Below, one piece after another: positions 3,201-36,636 of a stretch of DNA of 64,000 nucleotides. The notes under the pieces are model-generated. The model was given only the letters and a program-made list of their open reading frames with translations. It made no database searches and was not told where the DNA came from. Numbering within the stretch: position 1 is the first letter of the stretch; every line of letters begins with the position of its first letter. This stretch comes from a virus. The translations under genes and the position numbers were made by a program. The stretch covers positions 55,643 through 119,642 of the IMG/VR virus record IMGVR_UViG_3300043429_000130. The stretch is one strand, 5' to 3'.

Positions 3201-5042
3201 AGAAGCATTACCAGATAAACTTCCACTAAATGTAGGAGCACTAACCGTACCTGTCATAGTAAGATTACCTGATTGGTCCATTACAAATACTTGAGTGCCA
3301 CTAGAATTTCTTATTTGGAAGTTAGTTTGAGAAACTATATTATAACTACCTGCACCTGTAGCTCCACTTGTATTAAATGATATTACAGCAGTTGAACCCG
3401 GAAGTCTGACGTTTTCATTATAGTTTCCTCCAGGACCTTGAGCTATTAATAATCCTACTGTAACAGCGTTTGATGTAGTGCTTCCTCTACTTGTTACCGA
3501 GTTTAATGTATCTGTCTCGGTATATGATGTAATATAACCGGGCCCATTAGTAAGTTGATTTAAATTAGTAAGATTACCACTATGATATATAGTGTTACCA
3601 TCCCAATATAAAACTTGATTTGTTCTCATTTCTAAGAACGTACCTTTTACACCACTAATATGAAATGCAATACCTGTTGCAGTATTATCATAAGATTCTG
3701 TCCATAAAGCTGCTGTAGTATAGTTACCAGCTGTTTGAGATTTTCTAGTTCTTAATCCACCATAATAAGTTGTTTCGGTAGAAGTAGTAGCTCCACGAGC
3801 TGTAACATTAGCAAGAGTAGAAGTCTCAGTATAAGAACTTATGTACCCACTTGGATTACTATTATTATAGGGTGTATACCCTAAAGCTGTTGTAACATTA
3901 GAAGAAGTTATTCCTGTAATATATCCAGATGGATTGGTAGAATTATAAGGTGTATACCCTAATGCATTGGTTACTTGAGTAGATGTAATACCTGTTAAAT
4001 AGCCACCACTTGCGTGGTTACCCCACCCATATGCAGTATTCCAGTTTGCACTATTGTCAGTTATGGATGTGCCCCAGGCAGTACCTGTAGATAAAGCTAT
4101 TCCTGCACTAGGATAAACCATTGAGTTAATAGTCCAACTACGGTTGGCTGTTAAATCATAGCTAGTTCCATTGATAGTTATAGTTCTAGCTTGTGGAACT
4201 TTTGTTCCTATAGAAGTAGAAACAGTTGTGGCAAAATTAGGATCATCACCAAGAGCTGCCGCAAGTTCGTTGAGTGTATCAAGAGTTCCTGGAGCTGCGT
4301 CTACTAAATTAGAAATAGCTGTACCTACATACGTTTCTGTAGCATACCCAGTTAAAGCAGATGATGTGATATATCCAGCTCCGTTAGTAAGCTGGTTGTT
4401 GTTAGTAATAGTATTAACTACGTTTAGGTTACCTCCTACAATAGATAAACTGATCCCAGCACCTGCTGAAGCAGTTAGTACACCTGTATTAATAACGTTT
4501 AAGTTCTGATCAACTACTGAAAGACTAATACCAGATCCGGCAGACGCTGTTAGTATACCAGTATTTATTACATTAAGATTCTGATTAACAACACTAAGGC
4601 TAATACCTAATCCAGCTGAGGCTGTTAATATACCTGTGTTTACAACATTTAAGTTTTGGTTTACAACACTTAAACTAATACCGGCTCCTGAACTAGCAGT
4701 AAGTATACCAGTATTAACAATGTTAAGGTTTTGATTAACTACACTTAATGATATACCTAAACCAGCACTAGCTGTCATCACACCTGTATCAATAGACCAA
4801 GCACGGTTAGAAGAAAGATCGTAAGAAGTTCCGTTGATAGTAATAGTTCTACTAGTAGGTGCATAAGCAGTTACAGCACCACCTACAATAGATCTTACCC
4901 ATGCAGTGGTTGGAACCTTTCCGCTATTATCTTCACCAGTAGGAGCTATGCCTAAAGCAAGACTAGCCGGTAATACCACATGACCGTCTGCATCATACTG
5001 AAATACATTAAGTATATGGGAGGTCTTCCTTTGTTTGTTCAT
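231..5042 (-). CDS. Long tail fibre protein with C-terminal intramolecular chaperone (Peptidase_S74-like)
   Basis: 1603 aa, G/S/T/N-rich. Shaft motif LDTLNELAAALGDDPNFATT. C-terminal SDKRLKHNI...G.FAQEVQEVLPEAV...YEKIVPLLIEAIKEQQ chaperone signature. Confidence 0.9.
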   Translation of the reverse strand: MNKQRKTSHILNVFQYDADGHVVLPASLALGIAPTGEDNSGKVPTTAWVRSIVGGAVTAYAPTSRTITINGTSYDLSSNRAWSIDTGVMTASAGLGISLSVVNQNLNIVNTGILTASSGAGISLSVVNQNLNVVNTGILTASAGLGISLSVVNQNLNVINTGILTASAGSGISLSVVDQNLNVINTGVLTASAGAGISLSIVGGNLNVVNTITNNNQLTNGAGYITSSALTGYATETYVGTAISNLVDAAPGTLDTLNELAAALGDDPNFATTVSTSIGTKVPQARTITINGTSYDLTANRSWTINSMVYPSAGIALSTGTAWGTSITDNSANWNTAYGWGNHASGGYLTGITSTQVTNALGYTPYNSTNPSGYITGITSSNVTTALGYTPYNNSNPSGYISSYTETSTLANVTARGATTSTETTYYGGLRTRKSQTAGNYTTAALWTESYDNTATGIAFHISGVKGTFLEMRTNQVLYWDGNTIYHSGNLTNLNQLTNGPGYITSYTETDTLNSVTSRGSTTSNAVTVGLLIAQGPGGNYNENVRLPGSTAVISFNTSGATGAGSYNIVSQTNFQIRNSSGTQVFVMDQSGNLTMTGTVSAPTFSGSLSGNASTATNSSQLGGYGPNQTGGANTIVQRDSNGYIQNSYFYTSGGGSERGTGISYIAGFNSGDYYIRSYTLQGLASAMSGVSMNISGNATTANGANGNFYIDDNYGNTVVGVYTSTRYQGVFAMGDAYKLPADGTTTGSLYGLAWSHPNAGGVAGNLNTHGLLVMENGTFLAAVSGSIRARDDMRAPIFYDSNDTAYYLNPAGGSRLRNLYVGDSGDDWSDPGGWGTQVRFSNGPHVKFVLHARTPGIEAGMYVHTPGSVFIGSYTGHSVNMMVGGNSRLLIEDARVYSHVYMEAAGSMRAPIFYDSNDTGYYVDPNGVSNLSALKIPNASSYTSLRVGIDTSSRIYADDNRKAIAINADYYPALHLNAYNGTNTTHGAYIVMSGTLSAGGYRLWTMGIANYNPGIFSIGYSDLQDGNGHYGIGDAWSGNDAHHGRLIVDTSGNTKIRGMLYINGTSGGISAGSPVIHAGNIGSQSVNYASSSGTTSQRSFDYLYASSYLESGGAVYGTIFYDNNDRGYYLDPNTSGTSLRIAGNIHSDGSFGSNGYSSSSPNVVSRVFAPKGAAFSSDGSTGAIRIKLPFRGNNPMWTMKVRIYNYSTNQTSEYLLGNYAYDQGGYNSSATFIGGSNAPVHTVRFGNQDGVDCVWIGETNTGWSYPVVSVLDFTSGFRASDAGSQGTGWNISIVTSFGTIGTTINPDVKFSGLSAYSIQGTSNVAGTGSASYHPSGIYSTGTNWLYGTMYLNGNTVYDVNEIHANIFYDRNDTSYYLDPNSTSRLHSLITHYTRNIHDVATDHPFGLYFSNSFSDYSYAIYRQTGSWSHPYPDLHIAFHTGIKIGAYYGYNGTRFYNNSDWATITASVNDGDNHFRGYYDIIAYASDKRLKHNIQVIDNAIDKVMKLTGMTYQWNNVGSKHGWEPDTETREAGVFAQEVQEVLPEAVKLAPFDNNMGVSKSGENFLTVKYEKIVPLLIEAIKEQQKQIEELQNKLDNVLSSR
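4413..4787 (-). repeat. Five tandem 75-bp (25-aa) repeats in the tail fibre N-terminus
   Basis: TG(V/I)(M/L)TAS(A/S)GxGISLS(V/I)VxxNLNx(V/I)N repeated five times, with diverged synonymous positions. Confidence 0.9.
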
Positions 5043-5051
5043 AACCTACTA

Positions 5052-8000
5052 TTATCTATTTATAAGTTGTTTTACTAAATCTTTAAGTTCTTCTATCTCA
5101 CTCTTCTGAGATTCTATTTGTGTCTGCTGCTCTTTTATAGCTTCTGTAAGTAATGCTACCATTTTGCTATAATCTATCGAATGCCTATCACTAATTCCAG
5201 CAAGTAGGTCAGGCTGTACGCTAACTACTTCAGGAACAATTTCCTTAACATCTTGCGCAATGAAACCAAGCTTAGTAGACTTATCTTCAATGTCTATTCT
5301 GTTATAATAAACACCTGTTAGCTGCAATACTTTTTCTAACGCATTCTTAACAGGGGTAATATTACTTTTAATCCTTTTGTCAGAATAAGCAGTTACGTCA
5401 CCAGACGCTGTAGCGTTACCTGAGTTGTCCACTCTAAATATCCAGTTTCTTCCAGTGTTTAAAAAACCGATTTCATTTGCGGCTGAGTTGTGAATATAAT
5501 TCCTAGTTGTGCCGCCACCTATAAAGTGTATAGACGCATCAGAGTTACCACTATGTACATAAAAATCAGAACCATTTTCTGGATATAAATGCCATCCTGT
5601 ATTAGACCAATAGATACCGTTGTTGTTGGTGTGATTTCTGAACCAACCACCGGATGTATAAACATCATTACCAGTTACACTACTTGCTGCAGTAAGACTA
5701 CCAGCCACAGTTACATACCCATTCCATATTCTAAATTGCTCTCCATTACCATACCTGAACTCCATTCTATCTGAGTATCCAAGTATAGATGTAGTAGGCA
5801 TACCTGATTCACCAGATGCACTAAAAGCAATTACAGATACTCCGTTTGGTGCATTGAACAGTCTTATATTTTCATTGTATGCATTAAAATTACCTCCATT
5901 GTTTATCCATACAGAACCATTACTTATCGTACTTCCAAAACTAGCAGCACCTGTACTAGAAAGAGTCATAGATGATGTTCTTGTTCCTCCTGTAGTAGTA
6001 TTGTAAAAAAACCAATCACCGCTAGGAGAAAATCTCATGTATGCCTGACCAAAGTTTCCATTAAATCTTCCGAAGCCACTTGGAGAACCTCCGTTATTAA
6101 TCACGTTATATCCAAAACCAGCCCAGTCCCATGTCACTCCGGGTTCAGAGCACCATTGATATAATACAACTCTTCCTGTTGCTGCTCCATTATTTGCAGC
6201 AGGTAATTCATTTTGAATATATGAAGTTCCGTGTCCTCCTGTATTTGTAAATCCATCTATTGAATAATATGCTCTACTTGCTACACTTGCACTGCCTGCA
6301 CTAGTAGCATAGTTAACAGATTGAGAACCGATGTTACCAGAATGTATTAATGTTCTTATTGTACCATTATCAAAAAAAGTACCATTAGCATAAATATAAT
6401 ATGTACCACCAACCGGTGAGCCAATATACGTTCCATAGCTTCCGTTATACCCAAAAGCATCGGTCATTGCACCATGTGAAAACATTGTACCACTACTTAA
6501 GCTAGAGTAAAATCTTGGGGCACGCATATCTCCCGCTGCAAATATTGTACTAGCCGACCAGATATATCCAGTGAAATTTGACATCATCCACTGAGCATAA
6601 GCTGATGTTGCTCCAACAAAATTAGATGTCAACACTCCATTGCCATTTACATTAGCTGCTGACATACCAAATAATTCAGCGCCAACTGTTGTATATCCAC
6701 CAAATGTGTGATTCCCAGAAGGATTATTTTTCCAATACAATCCCCAGTTAGCTGCGTTTTCTTGGAATATCCATGCATCAACTTCAGATACAGCATGCTT
6801 TAAAAGTATAGAACCACCAGGAGCAGTAAAAGTTATTCCACTAGCAGTACTAGAACCACGTGACATTACTGTTGCTAGTGTATCTGTTTCTGTATATCCT
6901 GTTATATACCCGGGGCCGTTAGTTAACTGGTTAAGATTAGTTAAGTTACTAGAATTCCAAACAGTATATTCTGTTCCGTTACTAGCGGCCCATTTTATTG
7001 ATCTACCTCTAAATACGTAATCTCCTGTATCAGTTGGTTCACCCCAATATACATTTTTACCAGATTCAAAATTATATACACCACTTACTGAACTATGTGC
7101 ACCTTTATACACAACTCTCCAGTATCCTGATGCTACATCTACTTTATATGCTGGATTAGTTATACCTGTATAATCACCACCAGCATTTGACCAAGCAGCA
7201 GCAAACACAGGAGTTCCACTCATTGTACCACCTGATAAAGGAAGAGCGTATGAATTATAATTACCGGCATGAATTATAGTATTGCCAAGTATACTAGCAC
7301 CAGTAGAAACAATTCTAAGTACTGAACTATTATTAGAACCTAAATGTAAAGGAGCATCTTGTACATTTATTATAGCAGCGTGGTTAGGTCCATGATATCC
7401 AGTAGGAGAACTTTCATTACAGTATCCAAGTAAGAGACCCCATGAACTATTATGACTAATATTCATTTGGTTATCTGTTCCACCTGTAACATTAAATATG
7501 CCACCATTTGTAGAACCACCTGTACCTATATTAGTCTTACCAGTTACAGTACCACCAGAAAGAGGTAAATAGTTACTAGGAATAAAATTTCCAGCATGCC
7601 AAACTTGGTTACCTCCTTGTTGAAGAGATCCAGTTACTACATTAACTGTTGAACCAGTAATGCGTAAAGTAGATGCTGATCCTTCAATATTTACAGTACC
7701 ATAAGTACTTGTTTGTCTGTTATAAGCTATTATATAAACTTGTCCTCCTGATGTACCTATTTCAGCTGCTAAACCTGTTGCAGCATTACCTGTATACCAA
7801 CCAGTAAAACGACCCATTCCACCTGTAGATATATCTCCACTAAAATCTCTCTGTGATACTGTTACAGCATTTCCTGAAATATTAGTTTGATCTCCTGTAT
7901 TAGTACCACTAAGATTTGCAGCTGTTAGTGAACCTGTAAAGTTAGCTGTACCATCTACAGCCATACTAAATCTTGTATCTGAATCTAAAGCTGCCCAACT

Positions 8001-30388: not shown

Positions 30389-30607
30389 TTAATAAGTTTA
30401 AACTTAACAAATTTAATAATAGATTCCAAACTTACCATAATAATTTTTCAACATTTGTGTATAACCCCCACCTCTTAGTGTACATATATAGACCCCCCCC
30501 CTTGATAACATCCGTAGTAGAGGTTGTGAGTACCCGCCCAACCAAGCTACCCCACCATAAATTTGACGGGGGAATACCCCCTCGTTTAACAAGTTAAACT
30601 TAAATTT

Positions 30608-30898
30608 ATGGCAGCAACATCATTGCATCTGCTTGCAAAGCAAGCCTTGACCGAAGGTTCAGAGAACCTTACGTTCAACATTTCTACCGTGGAAACTAAG
30701 GCGTTCCCACGTACGAAAAACGTGGCCTTCAGAGCCACGACAGACCAAGGTACTGTCGTGACCTTCTGGGCCAGTAACATGGACTCTGTGGTAGAGTCCA
30801 TTGATGACGACGGAAACTTCCGTGTCATCCCCGGCACCCGCAGAGCGGATGACGGCAGCCTTTGGGATGACTCCCAAAGAAAAGGAATCTGGGATTAA
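30608..30898 (+). CDS. Hypothetical protein, first plus-strand gene
   Basis: 96 aa with visibly GC-richer codons. Preceded by TAAATTTG and a GGGGG-AATA-CCCCC hairpin, followed by a terminator. Confidence 0.7.
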   Translation: MAATSLHLLAKQALTEGSENLTFNISTVETKAFPRTKNVAFRATTDQGTVVTFWASNMDSVVESIDDDGNFRVIPGTRRADDGSLWDDSQRKGIWD

Positions 30899-30916
30899 CC
30901 CAGATTTCTTTTTTCT
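30878..30916 (+). terminator. Intrinsic terminator
   Basis: AGAAAAGGAATCTGGG-ATTAA-CCCAGATTTCTTTTTTCT. Confidence 0.75.
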
Positions 30917-30982
30917 GTTCAGTCATACCACAACTCGGTACTACGTCTTATATAGTTTTTCTGTTAGGATGCAGTACTGAGT

Positions 30983-31171
30983 TTGTCCTATTTATCCACC
31001 ATCCTTAACTTATGTCTTATGATTAGATCTAAGAACCTTATGTTTGCTACCTGGGAAGTATTCCGTAACTGGTATGCATACATGAAACTACGCTTTGTTA
31101 ACCTAAAGCTTAGACTAGCCAAGCTAGCACCTGGATATACATCCAAAGTTTTTGTTGTCATTACGTATTAA
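30983..31171 (+). CDS. Hypothetical protein (start uncertain)
   Basis: ORF track. Followed by hairpin GTGAGTGGTAG...CTACCACTTAC and a short T run. Confidence 0.45.
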   Translation: MSYLSTILNLCLMIRSKNLMFATWEVFRNWYAYMKLRFVNLKLRLAKLAPGYTSKVFVVITY

Positions 31172-31330
31172 ACAACATTTATACACGTTAACGTATGACA
31201 CTGTGAGTGGTAGTTAACCTCTACCACTTACTTTTATCCTTTAAATAGCATCTAAACCACCCTTTTGGAGCGGATAAGATAGCTATAAATACACTAATCC
31301 ATTCACTCACCCTCTTAATAATTAGATATT

Positions 31331-31549
31331 ATGAAATCTATTATGTTATTAGTTATCTACTTTGTCTCATACATATTCTTCTTCCTCTTACTCTCCACTG
31401 TAGGTATGTTCTTTACTTCCTATATAGAGACTATTACATCTGACGGCTGGTTCATAGCTTACAGCATGTTCCTTGGTTGGTGGTTAGCCATCTTCCCAGC
31501 CCGTGAGTACTACATCATGAATGAAGAGTATTTTGAAAGAGTATTTTAA
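31331..31549 (+). CDS. Small membrane protein
   Basis: Two hydrophobic segments. Confidence 0.7.
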   Translation: MKSIMLLVIYFVSYIFFFLLLSTVGMFFTSYIETITSDGWFIAYSMFLGWWLAIFPAREYYIMNEEYFERVF

Positions 31550-31649
31550 GACAGCTCATATTTGACCCCATTAACATAGATATTATATAGTATACTCTAT
31601 ACTGTGTTAAGGAGAGCTCAAATATGAGCCCACTAAAAGTTTTATTCCT

Positions 31650-31826
31650 ATGGAAAACATGAGATTTTTCCCCCTCAAAGTAGTTATGCCAGATGGTCAA
31701 GTGTACACACAATCTGTGTATGCTTGTACCAGATGGCATGCTATAGAGAGATTATACTCTAGAATGTCAGAGTATCAGCCCAATCGTGCTATGTACAAGC
31801 TGGCACGCAAGACTAAAAACGCATAG
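31650..31826 (+). CDS. Small hypothetical protein (58 aa)
   Basis: Manual translation MENMRFFPLKVVMPDGQVYTQSVYACTRWHAIERLYSR... Confidence 0.6.
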   Translation: MENMRFFPLKVVMPDGQVYTQSVYACTRWHAIERLYSRMSEYQPNRAMYKLARKTKNA

Positions 31827-31922
31827 TTTAACGATAGGAGTTTATCTGGTCTACTTCATTGATCAGAGGCTTTGTAGGTAGAGGCTCAAAACCTACATAT
31901 TTTCTATTTCTTATATACGTCC

Positions 31923-32057
31923 ATGAAAAAGCTCCACAAACTCAGCCTAATAGAGACAGTGTTCTTTATTATAGGTTTATCATTACTTATCACTGGCCTA
32001 ATAGTATGGTGGTCACGCTTCCTAGAAGTGCACAAATTCCTACTAATGACAGTTTAA
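31923..32057 (+). CDS. Small membrane protein (44 aa)
   Basis: Manual translation MKKLHKLSLIETVFFIIGLSLLITGLIVWWSRF... Confidence 0.5.
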   Translation: MKKLHKLSLIETVFFIIGLSLLITGLIVWWSRFLEVHKFLLMTV

Positions 32058-32146
32058 CTTAATATGGATGGTTAGTGAATCCCTGGAGATCATATCAAAG
32101 GGGAAACTAACTTCCTAAATCATTTACTAATTCTTAATCTAACTAT

Positions 32147-33399: not shown

Positions 33400-33404
33400 T
33401 TAAA

Positions 33405-33650
33405 GACGGTGAAGCTAGCATGAGCTAGTAGGGCACGCTCATGCTCAAATCTGGAAAACAGGACTGATCAACCATGAGCTACTACAGATGATATGGCTGT
33501 CGTGAGGGGGGCTTATGAAAAGGACTGCTGCTTTGATTAACTTCATGTTAGTCAGTATGTCTCAGTAGTAAATAAAACACTGACACTAACAGCATAGCTG
33601 CTTAGCATTAAGGAACACCAACCACAATCAGTACGTTAAGCTGATTATTT
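33405..33650 (+). ncRNA. Candidate structured ncRNA
   Basis: ORF-free gap with AGCATGAGC/GCTCATGCT, CTG-GAAAA-CAG and TGTTAG-TCAGT/ACTGA-CA-CTAACA stems. Shares a motif with the 35.5-36.2 kb element. Confidence 0.45.
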
Positions 33651-33681
33651 TCTAAATTAATTCTTTACATACATACTAATC

Positions 33682-34542: not shown

Positions 34543-35124
34543 ATGATACTAAAAAACAGAGAGTTTGATCACACTCAAGACCATTTTCATGAAGCTATGC
34601 AGATTCCTAGTTATATAAGAACTAGATGTCGTGAACGTATATTCTTTTCAGCTTTTTCTAATGCTTTACAAAGAATAGAACTATTTGAGGATGAAGATGA
34701 CGCCCCTAAAGAAATGTCTACTGTAACAGGAGACTTGCAACGTACTCTTAGTATGATTACTGATGATTTAGAGTACGAATACACATTACTTACTTTCTAT
34801 GGTCATCAAAAGATGGCTATGGAAGCATTTGGTAGGTATAAGTATTTAAATTCTAAGGATCAATCTAAAGAAGATAAGCTTAAACTAAGTATTATCAATC
34901 TTATTCAAGAGCTTAAGGATAGAGACGATGATGATGATGACAAGAAAGAAGAAGAGGATGAGATTGATAACATCACTGTTAATACTATTATTAAAAGAAT
35001 ATCTATTGTTAAAGACTCACACTATAACTTTGATGTATACTTAAAACAGCTTACTCAAAAGCTAAGTAGCCGTCCAGATGGTGATTTTAACGTAGATGAC
35101 TTTCTAAAAAATATCTTTGATTAG
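34543..35124 (+). CDS. Hypothetical protein
   Basis: 193 aa with an acidic patch. Confidence 0.7.
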   Translation: MILKNREFDHTQDHFHEAMQIPSYIRTRCRERIFFSAFSNALQRIELFEDEDDAPKEMSTVTGDLQRTLSMITDDLEYEYTLLTFYGHQKMAMEAFGRYKYLNSKDQSKEDKLKLSIINLIQELKDRDDDDDDKKEEEDEIDNITVNTIIKRISIVKDSHYNFDVYLKQLTQKLSSRPDGDFNVDDFLKNIFD

Positions 35125-35146
35125 GATTTAGGGTTAGTGAGTAAGG

Positions 35147-35182
35147 TGTAGATGGGAGTCTTTGACTCCCTCTACATTTTTT
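35147..35182 (+). terminator. Intrinsic terminator
   Basis: TGTAGATGGGAGTC-TTT-GACTCCCTCTACA followed by TTTTTT. Confidence 0.75.
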
Positions 35183-35208
35183 ACATATCTAATACAATCA
35201 CATAGTAC

Positions 35209-35496
35209 ATGAAAAGCATAAATCCACGTTTAATAAAAGGCTTTGGTCAAGTCTCTAACGAAGTTATGAGAGACCCAGAACTATCCTTAAAAGACAAAGG
35301 CTTGTATGCATATTTATGTACATTTGCTGGTAGTCAAACTAATGAGTTAACTGTTAGTGTCTACCGTATGGCAGATGAATGTGGTACAAGTCCGTCAACT
35401 ATAAAGAGAAGTATAGAAACTCTTCAGTCTAAAGGAATAATAGATAGATTGTTTATGGGTAAAGGAAAGACCCGTAAGACTATCATCTTAAAATAA
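35209..35496 (+). CDS. Winged helix-turn-helix protein (phage replication-initiator N-terminal type)
   Basis: FGQVSNEVMRDPELSLKDKGLYAYL...MADECGTSPSTIKRSIETLQSKGII. Confidence 0.8.
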   Translation: MKSINPRLIKGFGQVSNEVMRDPELSLKDKGLYAYLCTFAGSQTNELTVSVYRMADECGTSPSTIKRSIETLQSKGIIDRLFMGKGKTRKTIILK

Positions 35497-35499
35497 CAT

Positions 35500-36190
35500 C
35501 CTCCCAGCACTAATATCACATAGGTGGTAGCCTGCGAAACTATGCACCTGTTGGATGCTAGTGGGAGGGCCCTCTTAAAGGCAAGTGGGACACGTGCACA
35601 TATATTAGGTGTATATACACGCTAGTATATGATTAAGTCCTGTCCCCACGCCAGTCATTGTGCAAGCCTGATCAACAGAGCTAGTAAAGAGCGTACATGG
35701 TAGCGAAAGGTTGAGCTGAGTATGGTAAGGAATTTTCTCCTGCACTGTAGAAATACAGACTATACTAAGTGCTCCCCAAGTGACGTATTCTTGCTGAAAT
35801 GCACTATCCTGTGATAGTCTTGCACAAACCCATTAAGAGTTATGTGATAATATCATATGCAAGCAGCATCCTGCTAAGGTGTGTTTAGCTGTACGGTGTT
35901 ATGCATAACTCTTGTAACGCATTAGCTGATTATAGCAGCCTCAAGTGAGTCTAAAGCCCTCGGCCAGCATTGAACTGTTATAGTAGCTATTTATTAAAAG
36001 GTCTGATCTCAGGAGCTAAGTAGCGTATTAAATATAATTACCTAGGACAAGTATCCGCAAACAGTTCGTGTATAGTTAGTAGTACGACATGATGATAGAG
36101 CTCCGTCAAACGAACAGTATATCAACTTAGTAGCCTGATCAGGACAATGGTAGATCCGTAAGAACTATGGAACCCTGAGATAGACCTTTT
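35500..36190 (+). ncRNA. Large multi-domain structured ncRNA candidate (about 690 nt, strand inferred from context)
   Basis: No ORF of 60 aa or more. At least six nested long-range helices, including AAAAGGTCT(G)ATCTCAGG 35996-36013 / CCTGAGATAGACCTTTT 36174-36190, TTGTGCAAG/CTTGCACAA and AAGAGTTATG/CATAACTCTT. Confidence 0.7.
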
Positions 36191-36204
36191 TAAATTTTAA
36201 TATT

Positions 36205-36636
36205 ATGACTATAGAAGAACTAATTAACAAGTATCCTAAAATATTTGAAGACTATGAGGGTAATCCAGGTAGAGTAAACTGGTATGGCTTACCTAAAGGT
36301 TGGATATCTATAATAGATAAACTTTGCGGATGTATGCAAAGCTATATAGATAATCATGTTACTTATTCAAAAGATGGTGAATATAGACCACAACAAGTGA
36401 CTTGTTCTCAAATGAAAGAGAAGTTTGGTGGTCTACGCTTTTATACAAATGGTCATGATAATGTCATAGAAGGTATGATTAGCATGGCAGAATACATTTG
36501 TGACAATACCTGTCAGCAATGTAGGTCAGAACAAGATCTTGGTGTTACATCAGGTTGGATAACTGTATTATGCAGAACCTGTGTAATAGAACATGGTGAT
36601 AGAGCAATGAATGCTTGGACACCTCTAACTAAATAA
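36205..36636 (+). CDS. Hypothetical phage protein with QxKEKFGGLRFY motif
   Basis: GWISII..L...QMKEKFGGLRFY...TCQQC...GWITVLC..C, a pattern common in phage proteins. Confidence 0.75.
   Translation: MTIEELINKYPKIFEDYEGNPGRVNWYGLPKGWISIIDKLCGCMQSYIDNHVTYSKDGEYRPQQVTCSQMKEKFGGLRFYTNGHDNVIEGMISMAEYICDNTCQQCRSEQDLGVTSGWITVLCRTCVIEHGDRAMNAWTPLTK

Follow-up and report, generated by a model that had tools for sequence, protein, structure and literature searches.

The window analysed here is a stretch of 64 kb from an IMG/VR virus record (IMGVR_UViG_3300043429_000130; 119.6 kb, 92% complete by CheckV), and all coordinates given for this genome are those of the window. Our subject is a gap of 708 nucleotides (nt), 35497-36204, that lies between the stop codon of a gene for a winged-helix protein of 95 amino acids (aa; 35209-35496) and the start, at 36205, of an open reading frame (ORF) of 143 aa. 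We have found that this gap is a tandem array, on the + strand, of small non-coding RNA modules that fold independently and are independently exchangeable, and that the slot it occupies is a phage stable-RNA gene island. The modules, which we refer to as A to F (Table 1), abut one another with linkers of 5-15 nt. The initial annotation of this DNA had offered two possibilities, a large non-coding RNA of ~690 nt or an array of RNAs; with subsets and orders of modules that differ among related genomes, it is the array that stands and not the single RNA.

That the gap is free of ORFs, as had been claimed, is borne out: no ORF of 60 aa or more is present in 35497-36204 and each of its six frames is closed by 11-24 stop codons. 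Because TAA, TAG and TGA all occur in every frame, no stop-codon reassignment would open the gap, and we rejected an alternative genetic code for it. The small ORFs that it does contain are of 33, 46 and 30 aa, and the corresponding gaps of relatives hold different ones. Its G+C content is 0.434 (35501-36000), compared with 0.31-0.37 in neighbouring 500-nt bins. When words of 12-14 nt from the gap were sought in the rest of the genome, in both senses, four 14-mers came up, two of them in the non-conserved interior of C, a number to which no meaning can be given.

The folding of the gap is strong and belongs to one strand. The whole 708 nt folds to -209.9 kcal/mol on the + strand (z -3.0, with 0 of 20 shuffles as good) versus -181.9 kcal/mol (z -0.43) on the - strand, and the individual modules have z-scores of -2.25 to -5.07 on the + strand (200 dinucleotide shuffles each), with clearly weaker folding of the - strand for C, D, E and F. 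The helices on which the initial annotation had drawn are present, in that all nine of the motif pairs it quoted were recovered (Table 1), counting among them the word it gave as repeated, AGCCTGATCA, at 35665 and 36132. For two of the nine, the inner helices of F (CTAAGT/ACTTAG and GTTCGT/ACGAAC), the letters are in place but the helices are absent from every consensus fold of the relatives; indeed, by our reading of the alignment rows, for which we give no count, the CTAAGT/ACTTAG helix is disrupted in some close relatives. Compensatory changes among relatives are found in the helix of E, in the two outer helices of F (P1 and P1b), and in D and B.

The conserved core of the array consists of E and F, together ~270 nt (35923-36190). 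We collected 29 distinct F sequences and aligned 27, omitting L063 and L073, whose printed ends looked the same as those of L015 and L020; 24 of the aligned sequences have an E, 8-12 nt ahead of F. For the alignment of E 23 of these 27 were used, since L072, L076 and L077 have no recognisable E upstream and the E of L060 looked the same as that of L011. E is formed by a closing helix, with a bulged G at 35928, around a small hairpin and conserved unpaired stretches. Its helix is 95.7% paired, 9 of the 13 pairs show compensatory changes, none of 500 shuffles reaches any of five measures, and pairing falls to 24-53% when the partner strand is slid. In F, P1 pairs 35999-36004 and 36006-36013 with 36174-36187, leaving G36005 bulged. 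Of the cells of its 14 pairs 99.7% are paired, 5 pairs have changed on both sides (33 cells), the covariation score is reached by 0 of 500 shuffles, and sliding the partner by 1-3 columns lowers pairing to 16-52%. The central letters of P1 are nonetheless invariant, G-U-C-U-[G]-A-U in the 5' strand and A-U-A-G-A-C in the 3' strand. On its two sides P1 has AAA (35996-35998) and five consecutive T (36187-36191); the stalk of F, 14 bp plus three A-U pairs, is followed by this T5 14 nt before the next gene. Beyond an internal loop that carries an invariant AGC lies P1b (36020-36023 with 36165-36168), which in the ten most distant sequences is 100% paired, with compensatory changes in 3 of 4 pairs; its counterpart in the near subgroup, found with our own script, is a 4-bp helix with one double-changed cell, which we read as that of L053. 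Many of the pairs in the conserved helices of E and F are G-U pairs, which on the opposite strand would give C-A mismatches, and this fits a + strand RNA rather than a DNA palindrome.

We find, in addition, that one stalk design closes E, F and probably C as well, 5' G-N-C-U-[G]-A-U and 3' A-U-A-G-N'-C, in which the bracketed G is bulged, the core letters are invariant and the flanking pairs covary. In E the 5' strand of the stalk is N-C-U-[G]-A-U and its 3' strand A/G-U-A-G-N. The extra G is always in the 5' arm, never in the 3' arm. A strict scan for the stalk motif over the whole 119.6-kb genome returns E, F and one other place, where shuffles average 0.32. When a covariance model of F is run over the window, the runner-up to F itself is C, matched end to end (35664-35821, 11.7 bits, E-value 0.32), and the counterpart of C in L009 scores 24 bits (E-value 0.002). 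In an alignment of seven C sequences the resemblance to F continues past the 5' arm and ahead of the 3' arm. C is thus, judged by sequence likeness, probably an old and diverged duplicate of F. We also note an ORF-poor gap at 33400-33660 that has the word CTGATCAAC...GAGCTA in common with C; it is weakly folded (z -1.41) and is not found by the covariance model.

With the winged-helix protein as query, IMG/VR yielded 18 related loci and metagenome contigs a further 34. In nearly all of them an ORF-poor gap of 0.5-1.3 kb lies directly 3' of the winged-helix gene, and in every RNA-bearing relative examined that gene is directly upstream of the RNA island, E beginning ~4 nt past its stop codon in L010 and L014. 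The covariance model finds F in 28 of 45 loci (27 whole, one cut off at the end of the locus) and exactly one strong F in each of five related phage genomes. A 16-nt word from the 5' arm of F occurs at 26 places in IMG/VR, 16 of which have the matching 3' arm; the ten that have no partner arm look like chance. By blastn the 708 nt match nothing in a collection of cultured phages, and a search of genome contigs with the winged-helix protein gave one locus, on a plasmid (34% identity), that is without F.

What the relatives hold of the array varies. BLAST of the gap against them gives a patchy picture, with A-D and F in L009, B-F in L013, parts of B, C and F in L011 and L012, E-F in L014-L016 and matches within E only in L017-L021, loci that hold both E and F. 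L010 has just E-F, although its upstream protein is 96% identical. Order changes as well: B precedes C in this genome and directly precedes E in L046 and L052. On this comparison of sequences the modules are separable and are exchanged between phages, because both their subsets and their order differ. Beside the stalk-closed RNAs there are three hairpin RNAs of an accessory nature, A, B and D. In D 13 of 31 predicted pairs have compensatory changes, in only three sequences; in B the figure is 3 of 27, with one broken cell, in eight sequences of low diversity; and the closing stem of A has, by our reading of the alignment, lost one U-A pair on both sides in L009.

Table 1. Features of the RNA island and its borders in the window. 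Paired motifs are those quoted in the initial annotation, each with its first position; z-scores refer to the + strand unless marked otherwise.
Feature	Position	Strand	Paired motifs	Evidence
Terminator-like hairpin, T-rich tail	35154-35170	+		consensus scan match only; 7-bp stem, 5 G-C pairs
Winged-helix (HTH_36) gene, 95 aa	35209-35496	+		Pfam PF13730, E-value 2.9e-10
Module A, irregular hairpin, 7-bp closing stem	35500-35568	+	CCTCCCA 35500 / TGGGAGG 35562	helix verified; z -2.45
Module B, long hairpin	35585-35649	+	GTGGGACA 35585 / TGTCCCCAC 35641	z -3.49
Module C, stem-closed RNA, 170 nt	35658-35827	+	TTGTGCAAG 35658 / CTTGCACAA 35819; inside, AGTATGGT 35719 / ACTATACT 35759	z -2.46 (+), -0.76 (-)
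Module D, long hairpin, many G-U pairs	35835-35913	+	AAGAGTTATG 35835 / CATAACTCTT 35904	z -5.07 (+), -2.68 (-)
Module E, 67-nt RNA domain	35923-35989	+	AGCTGATTATAGCAG 35924 / CTGTTATAGTAGCT 35975	13-bp closing helix, covariation in 23 sequences; z -2.25
Module F, core RNA, ~190 nt	35996-36191	+	bulged helix 35996-36013 / 36174-36190; CTAAGT 36016 / ACTTAG 36125; GTTCGT 36064 / ACGAAC 36110	P1 covariation, 27 distinct sequences; covariance model match 178 bits; z -2.96
Cys-rich ORF, 143 aa, downstream border of island	36205-36636	+		matches no family

The slot itself is a stable-RNA island because relatives keep genes for transfer-messenger RNA (tmRNA) and for tRNA-like RNAs in the same place. 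Eight distinct relatives (L017, L020, L030, L033, L050, L069, L071 and L072) have a tmRNA above the gathering score downstream of F, two of the five related phage genomes have one, and tRNA-like matches lie within the island in L016 and L050 and ~0.7 kb after F in L076. It is this co-location in relatives that defines the island; the island of the present genome has neither kind of gene, and the RNA contigs described below give only a hint that its RNAs accumulate. The tmRNA model (RF00023) finds nothing in this genome, while in a control all 14 genomes gave a match, 9 of them above the cut-off. ARAGORN calls no tRNA or tmRNA in the window and no tRNA in 12 relatives.

Rfam has no place for the RNAs of the gap. 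At the gathering score Rfam 15 gives no match in the 64-kb window, and at E-values of up to 10 it gives five weak, chance-level matches over 35100-36300, those that touch the gap being nos_TCE (- strand; 16.1 bits, where the gathering score is 60) and mir-553, which reaches only the first two bases, and both fall far short of gathering. The families without an Rfam 15 match include GOLLD, ROOL, OLE, group I and II introns, RNase P, tmRNA, 6S, SRP, Y_RNA, YrlA and C4. A permissive scan of the loci of five related genomes likewise returned no family that recurs at the position of E and F.

The genes that share the island with F in relatives have features of their own. The tmRNAs are long, at 411-684 nt for a model of 374 positions, and carry large insertions (for example L030:2397-3080, L033:2017-2659 on the - strand, L071:3789-4338 and L017:5204-5717). 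A module of ~60 nt that looks like a pseudoknot, located inside F of L021, L065 and L070, recurs inside the tmRNA of L033; sub-modules therefore move between RNA genes. We considered a tmRNA-like tag frame in F and rejected it: the frame is not conserved, nor are its length and C-terminus, and even between close relatives the reading frame across the conserved block differs. A GCN-AAC start is present in 21 of the 27 F sequences and missing from 6. Directly after the winged-helix gene, L016 has a tRNA-like gene (4292-4364; 39 bits in Rfam) with acceptor, D and T arms and, as we read the Rfam alignment, an anticodon loop of 4 nt, for which ARAGORN makes no call; it is probably a non-decoding tRNA mimic. 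In L050 a gene for a weakly ParB/RepB-like protein of 244 aa (4607-5341, - strand) stands between F and the tRNA-like and tmRNA genes.

Upstream, the initial annotation had placed a winged-helix gene, and the 95-aa product is indeed an HTH_36 winged-helix protein. Its PHROG matches are to the N-terminal part of replication initiators and of DnaD-like loaders. In the distant relatives L024-L026 (33-35% identity) a winged-helix domain forms the start of proteins of 312-343 aa, after each of which comes an ORF of ~430 aa, and these full-length proteins match our genome over their first ~80 residues only. A group I or II intron splitting an initiator gene was rejected, as there is neither a match to an intron family nor a match to the rest of the 312-343-aa homologues. 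The terminator-like hairpin ahead of the gene likely marks the start of a separate transcription unit. Downstream, the 143-aa ORF has no match in Pfam, PHROG or NCBIfam and is present in only some relatives; counterparts of the ORF with 43% identity (L007 and L008) are on contigs of 501 kb and 308 kb.

Promoter scans gave no more than shuffled sequence, with 18 sigma-70 promoters found versus 16.6 expected and 75 versus 77 occurrences of TANNTTTG, the -7 promoter motif of Bacteroidota type, which may not be that of the host. In a tblastn search for similarity to cultured phages the neighbouring ATPase found only relatives of less than 60% identity, and the host can therefore not be read from them. 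The initial annotation had named transcript mapping as a check on its reading. Of 22 public runs listed, 20 contain all or part of a 3-kb stretch around the gap, 14 of these being DNA runs, mostly labelled freshwater or lake, and we examined the RNA-library contigs of four runs over that stretch. In run X17 a single contig (245 nt, depth 14.8) covers 35935-36179 with no differences, and in X18, which belongs to a different study, a single contig (240 nt) covers 35934-36173; nothing else of the 3-kb stretch is whole in either run, the one other piece being a 34-nt fragment whose continuation differs from the window. Since the contigs of two studies stop ~11 nt inside both ends of E-F, there is a hint, and we put it no higher, that E-F accumulates as one RNA of ~270 nt. 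Run X16, from a third study, has a contig of 269 nt (35557-35825) that takes in the end of A and then B and C, together with contigs on the upstream gene and on the F of a relative. The parts of the stretch without RNA contigs are not evidence of silence. RNA-library contigs exist over both E-F and B-C; as assemblies they give neither strand nor true ends.

The reading that we favour, and consider reasonably probable as a whole, is that the gap is an array of RNA modules in a stable-RNA island, co-transcribed with the winged-helix gene, whose RNAs act in trans by docking protein. The island would be transcribed from a promoter upstream of or inside the winged-helix gene, as part of one early transcription unit that runs from the gene through the modules to F as its end, where the F stalk and its run of U would terminate the transcript. 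The stem-closed modules may then be cut from the winged-helix transcript and persist as stable RNAs that act as protein-docking RNAs, the invariant bulged-G stalk being the place at which a protein of the host or the phage recognises or cuts them, in the manner of Y RNAs, whose conserved bulged stem is presented to Ro60. We favour docking in trans because a helix of invariant sequence, with covarying neighbours, is found on three RNAs with different interiors.

Several points weigh against this reading. The function it assigns is pure inference, and no partner protein was found. The F stalk and the U's that follow it may be nothing more than a terminator for the winged-helix gene. No interior fold is common to the whole F family, as RNAalifold returns P1 only on both MAFFT and model-fitted alignments, and the interiors of F differ by subgroup, with insertions of ~40 and ~80 nt. 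The aligned sequences are kin, so that significance is exaggerated by the shuffle control; sliding the partner is the cleaner control, and pairing drops sharply there too. The paralogy of C and F is based on weak model scores (11.7 and 24 bits) and an alignment made by eye, the closing stem of C hardly varies and is uninformative on pairing, and A has its sole homologue, by BLAST, in L009. As to the RNA contigs, their lack of strand and true ends counts here too, RNA libraries can hold DNA, and X16 covers the neighbouring gene at similar depth.

It is also possible to take the idea further, although we regard the following as speculative and on the whole unlikely. E-F, together with the older duplicate C, would form a new class of phage RNAs that assemble into ribonucleoproteins, the stalk docking a host or phage protein other than Ro60, possibly the winged-helix protein, and the variable interiors acting as exchangeable cargo or decoys that are also swapped into tmRNAs. 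The array might then be an early RNA toolkit that redirects host RNA decay, ribosome rescue or RNA-targeting defence.

The strongest alternative to docking in trans, which we think doubtful but deserving of serious attention, is that the modules are purely cis-acting elements within the early transcript, as stabilisers in a 3' untranslated region, as RNase III-type processing stalks and as a long-range terminator insulating the winged-helix gene from the genes downstream, and that none has a function as a free RNA. In every relative only a few nt separate the stop codon from the island, and the F stalk and T5 stand close before the next gene. Ribosomal RNAs are likewise released by RNase III through long terminal stalks in which their 5' and 3' flanks pair. 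T5 does follow P1, but P1 encloses ~160 nt and our scan for intrinsic terminators (loops of 3-8 nt) makes no call. A terminator or processing site needs neither an interior of 150-220 nt with conserved blocks nor an invariant stalk sequence common to three modules. Moreover, the RNA contigs of two studies hold E-F and not the coding region that is supposedly stabilised, and in relatives the slot holds bona fide RNA genes, namely those for tmRNA and tRNA-like RNA.

The idea of a single large multi-domain RNA of ~690 nt, of the GOLLD or ROOL kind, we now find improbable. The modules do abut, the whole region is well folded, and all modules are on one strand and probably come from one precursor. 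The minimum-energy fold, however, joins no distant modules, apart from a weak outer helix that is absent from relatives, and one RNA would have to be reconciled with relatives that carry subsets of it (E-F only in L010, next to a nearly identical upstream gene), with the changed order in L046, where B is before E, and with RNA contigs that cover E-F and B-C as separate pieces. GOLLD, ROOL and OLE are unmatched even at E-values of up to 10.

A true Y RNA system, in which E, F and C would bind host Ro60 (Rsr) via the bulged stalk and redirect a host exonuclease, is very improbable despite a number of parallels. Y RNAs offer Ro60 a conserved bulged stem, several tandem Y RNAs can derive from one precursor, as with mycobacterial YrlA and YrlB, and likely Y RNAs are reported near the Ro60 genes of 22 bacteriophages (PMC4201824); the gap, too, has several tandem RNAs with a common conserved bulged terminal stem. 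The 5' strand of F, GGUCUGA, is one letter off GGUCCGA, the motif contacted by Xenopus Ro60 and given for vertebrates, the bacterial counterpart being GNCGAAN0-1G (PMC4201824). In our test of these motifs E (GCUGAUU/GACUGAU) and C (GCCUGAU) were compared together with F, and the outcome was a vertebrate motif missed by one letter and no fit to the bacterial motif, which is absent from the stalk. Where GGUCCGA has a C as its bulged base, the stalk bulges a G that stands one position farther on, and no tRNA-like T or D arm is seen in F or E. Neither Y_RNA nor YrlA is among the Rfam matches at E-values of up to 10 in the window or in the loci of the five relatives. Finally, whereas phage YrlA is reported within 4 kb of a Ro60 gene (PMC4201824), the TROVE domain (PF05731) is absent from our genome and the five related phage genomes (0 of 6), in a search whose control was positive in 2 of 14 genomes.

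We consider it highly improbable that the gap is an element of the DNA, a replication origin bound by the winged-helix protein in which the inverted repeats are protein sites or cruciforms. The gene does match the N-terminal domain, in initiators the DNA-binding head, that replication initiators and helicase loaders possess, and the arms of the stalk can be read as inverted copies of G-W-C-T-(G)-A-T-C; but the extra G keeps to the 5' arm, helices are kept by G-U pairs and compensatory changes, and folding is that of one strand. A search for repeats gave five of 10-20 nt, each in two copies, and no iteron arrays, and the G+C content is above that of the flanks, with no A+T-rich stretch. Least probable of all is that the modules are decaying tmRNA or tRNA remnants, pseudogenes in an RNA island where this genome has no tmRNA while eight relatives have one, and to which the ~60-nt module common to some F and the tmRNA of L033 might point: the 708 nt show no similarity to the tmRNAs of the eight relatives better than an E-value of 0.35, the stalks of E and F are under structural selection, the tag frame shifts and the start motif is at times missing, as described above, and F co-exists with an intact tmRNA in relatives and is therefore not a replacement for one.

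The gap is not the largest non-coding one in the window, as had been claimed. By the measure of ORFs of 80 aa or more, the longest stretch without one is 30899-32146 (1248 nt). The bin that adjoins it, 30501-31000, has the highest G+C content of the window (0.472), and 30501-32146 as a whole lies, judged by GC skew, at a switch of gene orientation; a control region, or further RNAs, could be located there.

Phage genomes have been mined mainly for proteins, and here a widespread clade of lake phages spends 0.5-1.3 kb of a tightly packed early region on structure-conserved, uncatalogued RNAs that are found in environmental RNA samples. One invariant bulged stalk over different interiors provides a handle for finding the partner protein, and modules that are exchanged with phage tmRNAs suggest that phage RNA genes evolve by domain shuffling, as proteins do. 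If the partner were a host factor of RNA decay, ribosome rescue or defence, docking in trans would amount to a new route of phage takeover; if the modules are only processing or terminator signals, the result is a useful annotation and little more.

Lastly, we compare these RNAs with systems already described. Our full-text literature searches, which took in the Y RNA literature and whose coverage did not extend to the supplementary lists of PMC10690425, returned no description of them. That study mined 8,495 covariation-supported candidate RNAs from IMG/VR phage contigs, the same source and the same kind of object, and its main text names no motif with these features (PMC10690425); the RNAs of the gap, which match no Rfam family, may nevertheless have been listed among its candidates. 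GOLLD and ROOL are similarly phage-borne, ORF-free, densely folded and near tRNA-type genes, but each is one ornate RNA, whereas here there are separable modules of 65-195 nt, which at permissive E-values match neither. The tmRNAs share the island in eight relatives and a pseudoknot-like sub-module with some F, but the RNAs of the gap have no tRNA-like domain, no conserved tag frame and no match to RF00023. Y RNAs are the nearest known design, and with them the RNAs of the gap have in common tandem small RNAs, a terminal stem with a conserved bulged sequence near the 5' end, a variable interior and, we infer, one precursor; they differ in the bulged base and in being without a tRNA-like domain, the YrlA motif or an Rfam match, and the likeness is one of design and not of membership. 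Similar in kind are RNAs C and D of bacteriophage T4 (species 1 and 2), stable RNAs of no assigned function that lie in the T4 tRNA cluster and come from a common precursor, as the modules described here would also do. Compared by description only, the present RNAs differ in that their island partners are, in relatives only, a tmRNA and odd tRNA-like RNAs, and in the bulged-G stalk that they share. Phage stable RNAs of no assigned function beside tRNA-type genes are, therefore, a kind that is already known, and the array of modules A to F would belong with them.

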